Shown in pieces: positions 32,301-41,054 of a DNA stretch of 64,000 nucleotides. Under the pieces are notes generated by a model that worked only from the letters and a program-made list of their open reading frames with translations, did not search any database and was not told the DNA's origin. This DNA is from Eledone cirrhosa (Eukaryota): the NCBI GenBank assembly GCA_964016885.1, contig CAXHJY010001028.1, forward strand, positions 1 through 64,000, read 5' to 3'. A program made the position numbers and the translations under genes. Positions within the stretch are counted from its first letter, which is position 1; every line of letters begins with the position of its first letter.

Positions 32301-32342
<42 letters not shown>

Positions 32343-32407
32343 ATGTCCCAAGGCTCTGATACCATCAACACTATAAACACAGAGCTGGAATACCTAAGAA
32401 CTGACTA

Positions 32408-32466
32408 ACTGCCTGATGAGGTCATAGTCATTCAATGGCTATCATCGAAATATATATAGTAAATAA
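32408..32466 (+). ncRNA. Hammerhead-like motif in a small element (about 32338-32505) just upstream of the full PLE
   Basis: CTGATGA at 32413-19, stem II atagtca/tggctat, GAAA at 32447-50, palindromic stem III ATATATAT followed by A. Stem I is weak (tgc/gta). Confidence 0.55.
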
Positions 32467-32874
32467 AGGATTATGAGTTCATGCAATTGACTTATGTTTC
32501 GTCACATATATATATATATATAAATAATGAACTTTTTTTGTTTAATATAAGGAATTGTTTATTCATTATTTGTTTAATATTTTATCTTGACTCTGTATAC
32601 CGTTTATCTTTCACCGAAAGTGGATTTTCATTACATCTCTTCTTTCCATGATATCCGGAATACATTGAGTTCTTCATACGGATTGGACACTACCGTAAAC
32701 TCTTGGTAGATTTATCTACATAATTTTGCTCCTATTTTCACGGAAATATTCGTATTTTTGTACTGTATATGTGTATTAATTTTATATTTATGTATAAACA
32801 TATATATATGTATGATTTTGTAAACCCATATACATTTAGTTGAGCTCTTTCAATTGTCCATCATCCATATCACA

Positions 32875-35316
32875 ATGGAAAAACAATATTTAGGAACCTC
32901 CTTAAAAAACATACCAATACCTTCTAAGGACGACTTCTTACTCCTTATGATTCAGAAAACTAATAATTTTATCAGAAGGGTTAGATGGAGAGCCTACCAC
33001 TTCGATAGAAAATCTAAACAAGCAGATCGGAAATATATGTATGATTTCAATACTTACAAGAATCCACCACACAACTTTTTACTTGAAGACTTCGAGAAAG
33101 ACCTTTTTAATTTAATTAAACACCTCAAATTTAAAAAGTATAAATCCGTCTTTCAAAAGGACCTTGATTCTACCCTATTGGACCTAAAAAAGTCTAAAAA
33201 AATCCATGTCCACTCGGACAAAACTGGTAACTTGTATCATATGGATATTGAACATTATAATGAGTTCATATATAAAGAACTCAGAAAAAATTATAAAAAA
33301 TCTAATAATGTGTCACTCACCAACATCAACAACAAAACACACAACATAGTAAAAAAACTAAACATTGAAGATAGAACTGAACCTTTGGCATTGAAAAGAC
33401 CACACTTCAACCTGAAAGATCACAAATCTAACTTTAACTCTAATCCTTCTATTAGACTTATATGTCCCTCCAAATCAGATATTGGAATAATTAGCAAAAA
33501 AATTTTAGATAGAGTCATCCCACAAATAAGAAAACACGTTATTTTACCACTCTGGGAAAACACCTCCCAGGTAATTAACTGGTTTAAAAATATTAGGTGT
33601 AAATCTTCTGCTTCTTTCCTACAATTTGATATAGATAATTACTATTCTTCTATATCACCTATACTCCTGAACAAAGCATTAATATTTGCTAAAAATAGAT
33701 CTAATTTAACTTCGGATGACATTAACATTATTACACATGCTAGACTAACACTTATTGAATTTCAGAATGAATACTGGACCAGAAACACATACAGTAATCT
33801 TTTTGATATTACTATGGGTTCAAGCGATTCCGCCCAAATTACTGATCTTGTGGGCCTCTTTCTCCTTTTCAACATAAATGCCTCTTTTCCCCACCTCAAA
33901 GGTGGTTTATATCGTGATGACTGTCTTCTTCTTTCTAACAACCTTAGCCTTTCAGAAATCGAAAAAAACAAAAAACATATTAGAACTTTCCTTAAAGACT
34001 ATTATAATCTTAATATTACTTTTGAAAAAACAAGTAAAGTAGTAAATTTCCTAGATATAACTTTAGATTTAGCTACGGGTATATACCAACCTTACCATAA
34101 ACCTAACCAAAACTTACATTACATACACTCACAATCTAATCACCCTAAATCTATCCTTAAAAACCTTGCATATAATATATCACTTAGAATTTCTAACCTT
34201 TCTTCTAACCAAGATGTATTTGATAAAAATGCGACCTTTTATAATGAAGCTCTAGATAGAAGTGGCCACAAAAATAGATTAGAGTATATACCTTCTACTA
34301 AAAATACTGAAAGCATACAGCATAATATTACCAACAAACACCAAATGAAAAATACACACCTAAATGCCACCCACAATATACCCCAAAATACTAAATCTTC
34401 TAATATAAAGTATAGTAACCCTCAAAAAACTACTCATCATACAACTATAATAAATATTAATAATAAAACTCCTAATAAAAAAGATAAAACACCTAAATCT
34501 ACAAATATAACTAAAAATAGTTGTGGTGAGATCATTAACATTAATCCTCCTAGTAAAAATCATGATACAACCTATAAAAATAATAAAAATAATAAACAAC
34601 ATAGAAACCGTAATAGACGAGTTACTTGGTATAATGCTCCTTTTAATTTACAAGTTAAGGATAATATTGCTAAAAAATTTTTTTATATCCTTGAGAAAAA
34701 CTTCCCGCCAAACCACAAATACCATCAAATCTTAAATAGGTCTACAGTTAAATTCTCATACTCTACAACAAATAACATAAAACAAAATATAAGTGCATAT
34801 AATGCATATAAATGTAAGAAAACCATAAGTATACCACCAGTACATCAAATTAACAATAATATCTCCTCAAATACAGAATTAACGAAAGGATGTAACTGTA
34901 GAAACAAAACAAACTGCCCATTAAAAGGGAATTGTCTTGTTAACAACATAGTCTATAAATGTAATATTAAAACTAAAGATTCTATTTGCTCATATATAGG
35001 AGCTACCTCTAACAATTTTAAGACAAGGTTTAATACCCACAAGCATAGTTTTAAAAATGCCGCACTGGCTAATACAACATCTCTAGCAGAAAAAATCAAT
35101 AGTTATAAAAATAAGAATATAAAATATGATTTGACCTGGAGTGTGCTCAAAAGAGCCACCCCTTATCAAAATAATAGAAAGGAATGTAGATTATGTTCCC
35201 AAGAACTATTTGAAATAATGAAGTCTAAGGATATCTTATTAAATAAACGACAGGAATTAATTATATCGTGTAATCATAAACTAAAAAAAACATTTAAATA
35301 TTATAAACCTAATTAA
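32875..35316 (+). CDS. Penelope-like element polyprotein: reverse transcriptase plus C-terminal GIY-YIG endonuclease (Hydra-clade-like), about 813 aa
   Basis: Uninterrupted ORF; first ATG at 32875 (MEKQYLGTSLKNIPIPS). N-terminal SDKTGNLY motif. RT motifs FDIDNYYSSI, MGSSDS, GLYRDD and VNFLDITL. Cys linker CNCRNKTNCPLKGNC. GIY-YIG-type VY...YIG...RFNTH, followed by CRLCSQE and LLNKRQE...CNH. Confidence 0.95.
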   Translation: MEKQYLGTSLKNIPIPSKDDFLLLMIQKTNNFIRRVRWRAYHFDRKSKQADRKYMYDFNTYKNPPHNFLLEDFEKDLFNLIKHLKFKKYKSVFQKDLDSTLLDLKKSKKIHVHSDKTGNLYHMDIEHYNEFIYKELRKNYKKSNNVSLTNINNKTHNIVKKLNIEDRTEPLALKRPHFNLKDHKSNFNSNPSIRLICPSKSDIGIISKKILDRVIPQIRKHVILPLWENTSQVINWFKNIRCKSSASFLQFDIDNYYSSISPILLNKALIFAKNRSNLTSDDINIITHARLTLIEFQNEYWTRNTYSNLFDITMGSSDSAQITDLVGLFLLFNINASFPHLKGGLYRDDCLLLSNNLSLSEIEKNKKHIRTFLKDYYNLNITFEKTSKVVNFLDITLDLATGIYQPYHKPNQNLHYIHSQSNHPKSILKNLAYNISLRISNLSSNQDVFDKNATFYNEALDRSGHKNRLEYIPSTKNTESIQHNITNKHQMKNTHLNATHNIPQNTKSSNIKYSNPQKTTHHTTIININNKTPNKKDKTPKSTNITKNSCGEIININPPSKNHDTTYKNNKNNKQHRNRNRRVTWYNAPFNLQVKDNIAKKFFYILEKNFPPNHKYHQILNRSTVKFSYSTTNNIKQNISAYNAYKCKKTISIPPVHQINNNISSNTELTKGCNCRNKTNCPLKGNCLVNNIVYKCNIKTKDSICSYIGATSNNFKTRFNTHKHSFKNAALANTTSLAEKINSYKNKNIKYDLTWSVLKRATPYQNNRKECRLCSQELFEIMKSKDILLNKRQELIISCNHKLKKTFKYYKPN

Positions 35317-35839
35317 TAACATTATTCTAGAAATTAATTTAATTTAAATGTTAGTTAACCTATAAATTTAATTTAATTAATATTTTATTACAGATGAGAA
35401 AATATTATGTAATCATAAATTGTGAAAAACCTTTAAATATTACTAATATATACTTAGTAATTTAATTTATAGATTAATTTTAATTTATTTAAACCTTTTA
35501 TTATAATTCTTTTACAGATAAAATATAACAAAATAATATCATGTATCCAATGACGGAGAAATAATTTTTAGTATTATAGACCTAATTAATATACATTTTG
35601 GAAATATATTTATTATTTGGTTTTAGTTTTAATCAACCTAAAAATTTTAATTTTAATTTGCTTAAAATTAGTATCCTTATACAGACGAATTGCAGAATGT
35701 CATGTAATCATAGAATGGGATGTGTTTTGGATATATACCTAGTTAATATATTCTGTGCAATTTTTTGAAAAAGATATGTATATGTATATGTGTATGTATA
35801 TGTGTGTGTTGTGTATGTGTATCTGTATGTATGTATATA

Positions 35840-35894
<55 letters not shown>

Positions 35895-37042
35895 ATATGT
35901 ATGTATATGTGTATGTGTATGTATATGTATATGTATGCGTATTAATTTTGATTTCTATTTGCATATAATTATATTATGCTATTGATGAAATACAATATCT
36001 GTTTTATGTATTGTATACCTAATTAACATATACTAATTAACGTATACTATTGAAATAAATATATAATTTTTAATTTAGTTAACATATAATTTATATGCTA
36101 CTACCGATGTAATACTTTATTTTATTTTTATTTGGGTTTCTTTTCCCTATTACTAAATTCATCTCCTAATATTGATACCATAACGTTATTAACTTTAATT
36201 TAGTTATAATGTAATTAATAATCTACTACTGTTTGACTTCAAAATTCTGCTTCAAATATTATAAACCTAACTAATTTACACCTTAGAAATCAATATGTTG
36301 ACTATCTTTGGTTTAGTTAACATATGATTAATGGTATACTTATTTATTTTGAGATGCATAGATTTCGTATTTCCTAGCACTGAAAATATGTAAGAACATA
36401 CATTGAATTAAGATACGGAAAATATTATATGTTTCTTGAAACATATATTTACTTTGATCCCCTTCTCCAAACCCCCCCTTTCCCCCATACTATTATCATC
36501 TGTATTTGTAAGCGTCTATGTATGAATATATATGTAGGTAGGTGTCTATATAGGTTTGGGTATTTATATCTAAATATAAAAATACATATATGAGCATGCA
36601 AATATGAATGTAAGATTGTGTGTGTATATATGATTGTACATACATATGTATGTATATATATGTATATATATGCATTATATATGTATGTGTATGTGAATGT
36701 GTTGTATGTATATGTGTATGTATGTGTATATATGTGTATGTATGTGTATGCTTGTATATATAGGAATATATATATGTGTATATATGTATGTATATGTATA
36801 TGCGTGTATGTATGTATGTGTATGTGTGTTGTGTATATATATGTATGTCTCTCTATTTATATATTTATCTTCGTATCTATGTGATATATGTGTGTGTGTG
36901 TGCACGTATGCATATGTATGTGTTTGTGTGTGTTTGTATGTGTGTGTGTATATGTGTGTATGTGCGCACACACACATACACATATATATATATATATGTG
37001 AGTGTGTATGTGTGTCTGTGTGTGTGTGTGTGTGTGTATGTG

Positions 37043-37080
<38 letters not shown>

Positions 37081-37197
37081 GATATATATATATATATATA
37101 TATATAGGTGTCTATGTGTGAATATATGTCTTTATTCGTATGTGTGTATTTATGTATGTATATATTTATGTGTATGTATGTATGTGTATGTATGTAT

Positions 37198-37229
<32 letters not shown>

Positions 37230-37393
37230 GTATATATATATATGTATATTATTCTTTATTATTATAATATAACTTATGTGTATATGTGTATAAGTGAGGT
37301 TGTGTATGTATATATAATATGTGTATATATAAGAGTAATAAAATATATATGTATATGTGTATGTGCATGTCTGTTTTTTATGTGTGTGTGTAT

Positions 37394-37427
<34 letters not shown>

Positions 37428-37564
37428 ATACGTGTGTGTGTATGGATATATATATATATATATACATGTGGGTGTTTGTATGTGTATTTATGGTGGTATG
37501 AGTGTGTGGATATATATGTTTATGTATATATATATATATATATATGTATGAGTCTATGTGTGTG

Positions 37565-37600
<36 letters not shown>

Positions 37601-37923
37601 TATGTGTATATATATGTGTGTATATATATATATATGTGTATGTATGTGTGTATATATATATATCTCTATTAATGCGTGTGTGTATGTATATACATATGCC
37701 TTTTTATTATTATTTTTAGTTGTATGTCTGAGTTTGGTGAGGTTGTATTGTTTTTTATGTATATACACATATATTGAAGCGTATGTATTTATATATATGA
37801 GTATAAGTAGGTGCATATGTATGTATGATTATATATCTAATTCTATGTATGAAGGTACATCTATATATATATATATACGTGTGTATGTAAGTTGTGTGTG
37901 TATGTATCTATATGTCTATGTGA

Positions 37924-37963
<40 letters not shown>

Positions 37964-38052
37964 CGATGTGCGTATATGTATGTACATGTATGTACATGTA
38001 TGTGTGTATGTATGTGTTTGTATATTTAGATGTATGTGTATGTATATGTATG

Positions 38053-38109
<57 letters not shown>

Positions 38110-38943
38110 ATATATATATATATGGATATATATCTTTATTATCTATTTTTTATATATATGTGTATGTGTGTATGTGTTGCGCGTGTGTGTGTGTATATAT
38201 ATATCTTTTTATATGTGTATGTGTATGTTCGTGTAAGTGTATGTGTGTGTATGACTGTATATGTATGTGTGTATGTGTGTATGCGTAAATATCTCTATGT
38301 GCGCGTACATGTATGTATGTGTATATATATCTGTATGTGTATGTATATTATATTATATTTATTATATTTTATTGTTTTATTTTTTTTTATTTTTTTTTTT
38401 TTTTTTTTCTTAATTTATAGATACATTTATATTAGGCAGTCTGCTCAGACAATTGAATACTGACCCCTCCCCCCCCTCCCACCTAATTTCTGTATCTTGA
38501 TCTTGAAATGTGTGTGCCAGTGTTTTATGTGAGTGACTTAATTTCTATGTGCTTATGATTTTATATCCACATATATAAATGTGAGTGGGGGAGTGTGTGT
38601 GTTTGTATGTTCGTGGTTATGTGTATATTTATGCATATACGCGCATGTATGTGTGATTATACTGATATGTGTGAGTATGAAAAAATATATTTATATGCTT
38701 GACTCCATAAGTATCAATGCGCATCTTATCAGCGCATTAAGCTTACAGAGATATTAACCTTGAAATTTTGTGTTTGCATCCATCTTTTTAGTATGCGTAT
38801 ACAAATTATACACACATTTTTGTAAAATATGTGTAAGGATTTTACATGTATATACACACACCGAACTGCTTTTAACCCTTTGTGTTTTCATTGGTCAATT
38901 TTGAACTGATATTTTGAATTGTTGTTATTATCAATAAATATAC

Positions 38944-39098
38944 TTCATTATTTCTGAAGACGGCGTATATATGTGTTAGGTATGTATATTTAATCTTGAT
39001 AATTTGTATAATTTTGTATAATTTTGTACATAGATCTGTTGAATATGCATACCAATTATAACACATATATACCCTAGAAACGATCGTTAAATAATGAA
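38944..39098 (+). ncRNA. Type I hammerhead ribozyme with extended stem II (PLE 3' terminal repeat region)
   Basis: Stem I ttcattattt (38944-53) / aaataatgaa (39089-98), 10 bp. Core CTGAAGA at 38954-60 and GAAA at 39077-80. Stem II includes gtatatatgtgtta/taacacatatatac and ggtatgtatattt/gaatatgcatacc. Palindromic stem III ACGATCGT. GUU triplet, predicted cut after 39088. Confidence 0.85.
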
Positions 39099-39143
39099 CT
39101 TTTTTTGTTTAATATAAGGAATTGTTTATTCATTATTTGTTTA

Positions 39144-39218
<75 letters not shown>

Positions 39219-39726: not shown

Positions 39727-39975
39727 CTCTAGACTTTTTAACTTTGATTTTGAAAGTAGGTTTATAATTATCAATTCTCTCTATACTTTTGTAGCTGTCT
39801 CGGTGGCCTAGTTGGAGGAATCATAGACGGTGGTGATCCTGTCCTGACGTTCGAACCTAGTAGTGAATAGAATTCCCAGTAAACCTTTTCAATTTTTTCC
39901 TATTGGTTATAAAATAAAAACTGAAAAAGGTTACATGTACCTCTTGACCAGGATTGAACCTGAGACCAGGATCTC

Positions 39976-40371
39976 CACGTGGCAAGTGTGTGCAGTTTTG
40001 TGCGTACGTGCAACCGATGCCTTGAAAAGGCGTGAGGGTGTTTCGACGTCTACAATTGCGCCTCTTGACGACACTGACTCTAACATATCTGATAAGACAA
40101 GCGGACAAGTCTCAACGAAGCTGATAACGATTGCATGTTGTATAGTGGTGGTGTTTGGGGATGGCGGAGCGGGTGGGAAATGGTGGTGATGATACACACA
40201 CACACACACGCACATATACACACACACACACACACATATACATATATATATAAGTTAATCCCGGGTTCAATCGGGGGTAACTACAGTAAGTAAGTAAGGT
40301 ACTCAATCATCAGAGCTTAATGATGATTTCTCCCGAATGAAACACTTCTAGTCCCGTAGAAGCCATTTCTC

Positions 40372-40419
<48 letters not shown>

Positions 40420-40573
40420 GATAACAAGTTATCGTTATAGGTAATCCAGTTAGAGTACCCCGCGTCGTGGATGGTTTTAACGAACTCTAGACACACCTGA
40501 TCAACGAAACAATTGTTAGTACTTTAAATAAAGCCCTTATTGTACAGCCAACCATGTTACTCTTCTTTCTTTA

Positions 40574-40643
<70 letters not shown>

Positions 40644-40771
40644 GAGAAATGGCTTCTACAGGACTAGAAGTGTTTCATTCGGGAGAAATCATCATTAAGC
40701 TCTGATGATTGAGTACCTTACTTACTTACTGTAGTTACCCCGATTGAACCCGGGATTAACTTATATATATA

Positions 40772-40812
<41 letters not shown>

Positions 40813-41032
40813 GTATCATCACCACCATTTCCCACCCGCTCCGCCATCCCCAAACACCACCACTATACAACATGCAATCGTTATCAGCTTCGTTGAGACT
40901 TGTCCGCTTGTCTTATCAGATATGTTAGAGTCAGTGTCGTCAAGAGGCGCAATTGTAGACGTCGAAACACCCTCACGCCGTTTCAAGGCATCGGTTGCAC
41001 GTACGCACAAAACTGCACACACTTGCCACGTG
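39976..41032. repeat. Inverted duplication with about 400-bp arms (39976-40378 and 40640-41032)
   Basis: Each arm contains unique sequence, a (CA)n tract and a rearranged family B element; only a few mismatches and indels between arms. Confidence 0.85.
40418..40578 (+). mobile_element. Family C insert in (TA)n; a diverged reverse copy lies at 5753-5853
   Basis: Shared gaaacaattgtta(g/a)tacttt...ttgtacagcc...accatgtta. GAAA + palindromic ACAATTGT + U resembles a hammerhead 3' half; the first core is not intact. Confidence 0.55.
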
Positions 41033-41054
41033 CAAAGTCTGGTTGGTGTGTGTA

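Follow-up and report, generated by a model that had tools for sequence, protein, structure and literature searches.

The window analysed here comprises 64,000 nt of an Eledone cirrhosa contig (CAXHJY010001028.1, assembly GCA_964016885.1, positions 1 to 64,000) and contains a Penelope-like element on its forward strand at positions 32522–39152. Positions are also numbered relative to the predicted cut of the element's hammerhead ribozyme, +1 being 39089 (also 32522) and −1 being 39088. Two identical 64-nt repeats (65 nt counting a shared T), 32522–32585 and 39089–39152, bound the element at a spacing of 6567 nt, and each adjoins a (TA)n target tract, 32507–32521 on the left and 39153–39215 on the right. 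The 5′ copy runs from +1 to +64, and its last base, 32585, is the short 3′-end site of the family; the insertion itself terminates at this short (+64) site in the 3′ copy. Both copies contain an exact second copy of the 5′ strand of stem I at +41 to +50 (32562–32571, also 39129–39138). The long 3′-end site (32709–32722, with +201 at 32722) may be a second start of reverse transcription. An open reading frame (ORF) of 813 codons at 32875–35316 is followed by a 3.6-kb 3′ untranslated region (UTR, 35317–38946) that is rich in TA/TG microsatellites and contains degenerate 115–140-nt repeats. Degenerate 113–139-nt repeats occupy 35259–36342, covering the end of the ORF and the proximal 3′ UTR. An AATAAA (38933–38938) lies 8 nt before −142 (38947), which is the dominant fixed 5′ end of short family copies and, in its TCA context, a likely transcription start. 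The ribozyme (38944–39098) is a type I hammerhead with a long stem II and a palindromic stem III of 2 bp, predicted to cut after 39088.

A preliminary description of this DNA had reported identical 64-nt repeats in (TA)n, an intact ORF, and no upstream ribozyme half at the 5′ repeat. All three observations hold, the last in the sense that no upstream half of the element's own ribozyme is present there. The copy had also been called young and possibly active. Its youth is borne out by its closeness to its nearest relatives, from which it differs at 4 of 2442 nt; its activity is doubtful, because the copy lacks a −142 start. No contig of four public sequencing runs bridges the 5′ junction, and the contigs skip the repeat, so the junction rests on the assembly. 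A search for the empty allele with the right flank gave a full match only to the window itself.

The encoded protein combines a reverse transcriptase (RT) with a C-terminal GIY-YIG-type nuclease that carries a CxCx5C linker, a CxxC and a CxH. Of 118 homologs found, 40 proteins were aligned. The RT motifs include DKT (115–117) and YRDD (346–349); residues D252, D348, and D349 of the RT, together with Y694, Y707, G709, R718, and H722, are invariant in 40/40. Residues R37-W38-R39 correspond to the RW[K/R] motif, with K in 25 of the 40, and D115-K116-T117, the DKT that replaces DKG, are conserved in 40, 40, and 37, respectively. The linker cysteines C673, C675, and C681 are present in all 40, C771 and C774 in 39, and C799 and H801 in 38, the latter two pairs forming the CxxC and CxH beside the nuclease E and N. 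Searches of Pfam and of solved structures with the single protein gave no usable match; a profile of the family shows a weak match to a retron RT (E 0.019), and one homolog matches GIY-YIG below the cut-off (E 0.012). The family shows the features of endonuclease-bearing (EN+) Penelope-like elements, namely an RT and a GIY-YIG nuclease encoded in one ORF, inverted 5′ copies, partial tandems, and an optional tail, and like the Hydra clade it inserts into (TA)n. The length below 3 kb that is general but not strict in that clade is exceeded, units being 6.05–7.4 kb and the ORF alone 2.4 kb. By these motifs, the element bears the marks of the Hydra clade. Membership in Naiad was considered and rejected, as the nuclease is C-terminal.

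All parts of a hammerhead are present in type I order: the motifs CUGANGA, GAAA, and NUH, and three stems. Stem I pairs 38944–38953 with 39089–39098 (10 bp), the core consists of CUGAAGA (38954–38960), GAAA (39077–39080), and GUU (39086–39088), and stem III is 2 bp on the palindromic ACGAUCGU, a feature that suggests dimers (PMC4209133). The parts thus lie where the preliminary prediction of a cut after 39088 requires them, with a C-A closure of stem II that is weighed below and no hammerhead match at E ≤ 1 in an Rfam scan. The fold has z = −7.15, to which the long stem II contributes most, and the core is identical in 57 of 58 distinct copies, partly by construction, since the copies were retrieved by a core-based pattern. 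The ribozyme is plausible. In equilibrium monomer folds, stem I has a probability of 0.4–0.9 on RNA arriving from upstream until +37, and of at most 0.014 once +41 to +50 have been transcribed. The latter segment is predicted to pair with +1 to +10 and to turn the ribozyme off, and this pairing is retained in 66 of 80 distinct copies. Given the low probability of stem I, 5′ cuts should be few, in agreement with the counts, and a circle should be stable.

The preliminary description had proposed that the template RNA had a ribozyme-made 5′ end. A 31-mer following the cut occurs 8,547 times in the genome, and 67 of these copies start near the cut, as judged by the absence of both C(−4) and G(−3), a filter that flanks with a chance C or G escape (for example, locus L273). 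The exact junction of (TA)n and cut occurs once, in the window copy, and the upstream half is kept in all 29 other best-matching ORF-side copies. We inspected and hand-sorted 64 of the 67: approximately 37 fit a cut template, approximately 22 are paired with an arm extending across the uncut site, and approximately 5 are indels; the window copy is the sole ORF-bearing case among the 64. About a dozen cut-site starts with TCAG were rejected as products of cleaved RNA, because the partner arm extends across the uncut site as far as −142, and the arms are joined through the complementarity of stem I. The background was taken from the first 100 of 234 matches with a junction between −14 and the cut, of which 11 were left out (match to −14 or indels), one was lost, and 88 arms were scored. 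Template ends number 23 in the cut bin vs 33 over the 11 upstream bases, an excess of 1.7–2.6-fold (p 0.0007–0.036, depending on bin width). Junctions at +2 to +11 are about equally dense (26 arms by eye in the first 100 of 616 matches, most others being indels), and over a smaller span the cut bin does not differ significantly from the flanking bases on both sides (13 vs 52 arms, combined test, p 0.21). A small class of products of cut RNA likely exists.

Among ORF-bearing copies, we examined the first 100 of 307 sites reading beyond +201. Their 5′ ends lie past −142 in 83, are scattered in 16, and coincide with the cut in one (L273). Judged by this census, the family does not normally proceed through a 5′ end made by the ribozyme, and the proposal survives at about even odds for the window copy alone. 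Scattered 5′ ends of full-length copies had been named beforehand as a result that would refute it, and this is largely what the ORF-bearing copies show. The 64-nt overhang, once read as a sign of a circular or tandem template, is ordinary, because family copies, independent contigs included, end at +64 or approximately +201. The idea of a circular template draws support from the other copies; the window copy, if anything, points to linear RNA, since a circular template would offer no stop at the cut.

The short copies derive from RNA whose ribozyme was still uncut, because their 5′ pile-up at −142 lies upstream of it. The C at −143 is missing in 2,557 copies and kept in 5,728. Among the first 30 copies without this C, 25 are true −142 junctions and 5 are inserts resembling short interspersed elements (SINEs); none reaches the ORF. 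About a quarter of short copies begin at −142, and the stop rate in the window's subfamily is approximately 23% (27 and 41 of two sets of 100, by eye). We take the TCA context of −142 to be initiator-like. Passages in PMC3846280 and PMC2377424 are in line with that label. Position −142 is thus likely a transcription start; a splice acceptor there was rejected, as there is no AG. At exactly this position, an insert ending in (ATT)n, presumably a SINE, recurs in L096, L099–L102, L251, and L255 (twice in L100), with varying 5′ truncations and duplication lengths; by match counts, it may affect hundreds of copies. A chimeric family headed by this insert was rejected, since element sequence continues upstream of each insert and the duplications vary in length. 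In the older subfamily L096–L102, the 3′ UTR upstream of −142 contains tandem repeats of approximately 230 nt with a decayed stem I and core start.

Long copies lack this stop. Of the 100 ORF-side sites, 17 end before −142 and 83 reach it, and none of the 83 stops there on the second pass; the first 30 cut sites give 12 stops in 26 (Fisher p 3e-9). Assuming a stop rate of 15% and 60 independent insertions, the chance of 0/83 is 6e-5. The long copies run on into partial or whole tandem units; upstream of −142, 24 ends are scattered with no second pile-up, and 33 of 57 lie beyond 2.2 kb. Seventy copies fetched at length all contain the full ORF region, which is open in 44, and their 3′ ends are short in 35, long in 16, in the next unit in 10, and unassigned in 9. 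The 100 sites include 11 direct arrays of two to three ORF units, the longest having three. They are near-clonal, with 0–3 ORF differences in 10 of 11 clusters and 3–18 to the nearest outside copy, and arrays with private variants occur in several subfamilies. On a linear RNA that begins at −142, a full-length copy must stop at −142, and no stop is seen; therefore, the template of the long copies would have no such end. A circle or a long multimer would account for this, as would a jump that leaves no seam. Multimers are rated lower, because long ones would be needed in every subfamily and can only shrink.

A further constraint comes from inverted arm pairs, taken from all fetched loci with arms at most 700 nt apart. 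Of 93 pairs, 90 join a long arm to a short arm, one is ORF/ORF, two are unassigned, and none is short/short or long/long. The short (+64) arm reaches farther 5′ in 38 pairs and the long (+201) arm in 10, with 42 ties. Partners of −142 arms pass −142 in none of 21 cases (those with a partner among the 30, three insertions being counted twice), and at all 10 loci with ORF arms the partner extends past it (one locus has a local duplication, another a SINE-like insert). The pairs fit two RTs on one RNA with the +64 RT leading, rather than fold-back priming. At L346, L363, L366, and L367, arms that start at the cut stand head to head with an inverted SINE-like piece in place of the partner arm, as though a different RNA had served the second RT as template. 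Arm junctions at L038/L039, L056/L057, L094, and L103/L104 hold 20–35-nt repeats of junction-near sequence, similar to templated end-joining insertions.

From these counts we consider it somewhat likelier than an even chance that in this Hydra-clade family, which ends at two fixed sites (+64 and +201), the ORF-bearing copies are made on an RNA circle that closes where the hammerhead cuts. Transcription would begin at −142, 7 nt before the ribozyme core, and the ribozyme is predicted to have only a short time in which to fold, with poor folding on RNA that begins at −142. The protein would break the (TA)n, and two RTs would prime from both ends, at +64 and +201 of one RNA, the complementary DNAs (cDNAs) joining head to head. 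Linear uncut RNA would account for the short arms ending at −142. If cut at two hammerheads, the RNA would close by ligation or be held by stem I, and an RT circling round it would yield truncated copies, partial tandems, and copies of two to three units and would regenerate the pseudo-long terminal repeat (pseudo-LTR). The circle may close at the hammerhead; no other chemistry that makes ends is in sight. The window copy would be one +64 arm whose synthesis passed round once and halted at the cut, either because its RNA was cut at the 5′ ribozyme only or by chance truncation, at about even odds.

Several observations weigh against a hammerhead-made circle. Stem II closes with a C-A mismatch followed by G-U or A-U, which departs from the G10.1-C11.1 expected in type I. 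Across ten copies, 96.7% of cells are paired, with one pair changed on both sides; shuffles match this in 312 of 500, so that covariation is no higher than in the control. On RNA starting at −142, stem I has a probability of at most 0.013 in the same equilibrium monomer fold, so that the first cut would be hard as a monomer, the model's weak point; circles would then need read-through, multi-unit sources, dimers, or help from a protein. The G at −143 that might reflect a cap is a weak signature (15/56 vs 3/34, p 0.056, by-eye counts). The junction of a circle reads like a genomic tandem junction, and circularity is suggested only by the missing stop, in genomic copies. In cluster L224–L227, internal differences reach 6, vs 4 to outside copies. 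The ORF-side sites seen are the first 100 of 307, and the inverted-pair loci were chosen by junction patterns and are thus non-random. For the green anole element, hammerhead mutants had no effect on insertion in vitro, and no RNA reads ended at the cut, according to PMC11167929.

The last result would fit a process without any circle, in which linear read-through RNA of multi-unit arrays or from upstream promoters serves as template and the ribozyme plays little part; the 11 direct arrays point the same way. With a −142 start in every unit, however, read-through should leave some second-pass stops among the 83 copies, and linear copying only shortens arrays that reach three units at most, yet those with private variants occur in several subfamilies. 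We regard this explanation as unlikely. Quite unlikely, in our view, are seamless RT jumps between linear RNA ends, or a −142 that is a site of processing or closure rather than a transcription start. The AATAAA just upstream and the SINE-like inserts recurring exactly at −142 would suit such a site, and the genomic data give the missing stop only and cannot place the closure. But a jump from −142 would need RNA 3′ ends at exactly −143, internal junctions are intact in 83/83, and both the TCA context, which recurs in a second family described below, and the weak extra G fit a start site.

Inverted arms might instead arise by fold-back self-priming on one cDNA or by use of an antisense template, as proposed in PMC3846280, and many junctions are indeed palindromic. 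Fold-back cannot extend 3′ of the first-strand start, so the +201 arm should reach farther 5′; the +64 arm does so in 38 of the 48 untied pairs, which makes this explanation very improbable. The original proposal, in which templates normally end at a ribozyme cut and full-length copies begin there, can cite the window copy, L273, and the excess of template ends at the cut. It is scarcely credible for a family in which so few copies (67/8,547), and 1 of 100 ORF-bearing sites, start there and in which the dominant fixed end lies upstream of an intact ribozyme. For the window copy alone, chance truncation aided by A/T microhomology with the TA tract is a toss-up, and it is compatible with the circle. 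Almost all bases between −13 and +11 carry junctions, and +6 has 11 arms vs 13 in the whole cut bin over the same span (by eye). Approximately 0.6 of 307 ORF copies would be expected in the bin by chance (an estimate from 17 truncations in 330 nt), and at least 2 are seen. On the other hand, template ends in the cut bin exceed those at upstream bases, as described above.

Outside the element, the left flank at 32341–32506 (forward strand) is the short arm of a second hammerhead family, which the preliminary description had overlooked, and the element sits in the 3′ TA tract of this arm. With loci L370–L399, it represents a high-copy family with a CUGAUGA core, a palindromic AUAUAU loop, and a fixed 3′ end in (TA)n. 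Its 5′ ends also pile up at a TCA site before an uncut ribozyme, in 13 of 27 reaching copies (30 of 61 sampled), with TA microhomology blurring the exact base and two loci that may be duplicates. In the window arm, a G precedes the start and two bases are missing after the core. Further left, reverse copies of the first 35 nt of this family lie within tandem 109-nt repeats. The right flank contains a long inverted repeat at 39965–41043, with arms of 282 nt (95%) and 144 nt (99%).

The element is thus real and of a known kind, and the claim made from a single copy is weak; as for a circular template and two-ended priming, the support that the family lends them is indirect but looks strong. The full proposal, an autonomous animal retrotransposon that replicates via a 6.5-kb hammerhead-made RNA circle, with an RT dimer priming at both ends of a broken (TA)n from two fixed sites on one RNA and a downstream copy of stem I switching the ribozyme off afterwards, falls a little short of an even chance. 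If it is true, pseudo-LTR regeneration, tails, inverted arms, and tandems would be one mechanism. How pseudo-LTRs are rebuilt and what the hammerhead does in Penelope-like elements are described as open questions in passages of PMC2377424, PMC7761336, and PMC8557442. A young family with a fixed 5′ stop as internal control makes them testable through the predicted start at −142, the cut at 39088, and two priming sites, and the same count can be applied to any high-copy family. A literature search, with subscription papers and supplements outside its scope, found no copy-level or RNA evidence for a circular template in an autonomous element.

The closest relatives are in the Hydra clade (Craig et al. 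2021, PMC8557442), with which the element shares RW[K/R], DKT, CxCx5C, the CxxC and CxH round the nuclease E and N, and the C-terminal GIY-YIG, as well as the hammerhead, (TA)n targets, partial tandems, and inverted 5′ copies. Published units there are shorter than 3 kb and tails are 30–40 nt, whereas the present unit reaches 6.6 kb through its 3.6-kb microsatellite UTR its tail is 137 nt long, and its copies number in the thousands. PAc (Poseidon) of the green anole (Frangieh et al. 2024, PMC11167929) belongs to another clade, and its ribozyme overlaps its ORF start. It likewise has two internal RT starts downstream of the hammerhead that mark genomic ends, AT-rich targets, and uncut RNA templating short products, and its two starts and its tail match the +64 and +201 ends of the present family. 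Reports on that clade thus already describe the two starts, the cutting of both strands, and a dimer as a prediction. No circle was tested there, and the pairing of the two sites across an insertion goes unreported in its text. In Drosophila virilis Penelope (Schostak et al. 2008, PMC2377424), an initiator promoter lies in the pseudo-LTR and a partial tandem is needed for transcription. That element has a 5′ intron, of which none is evident in the present one, and its authors saw no evident way in which the pseudo-LTR could be regenerated. Hammerhead cleavage, ligation to a circle, and reverse transcription of more than one unit were proposed to explain the tandems of Penelope-like elements by Cervera and de la Pena (2014, PMC4209133), as a tentative model without in vivo evidence, for which the present support is a copy census. 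The metazoan non-LTR retrozymes (Cervera and de la Pena 2020, PMC7229834) share type I hammerheads and tandem copies with the present family. Their circles were shown, with RtcB ligation in vitro; they are non-coding and 170–400 nt long, whereas the present unit is autonomous and approximately 20 times longer.

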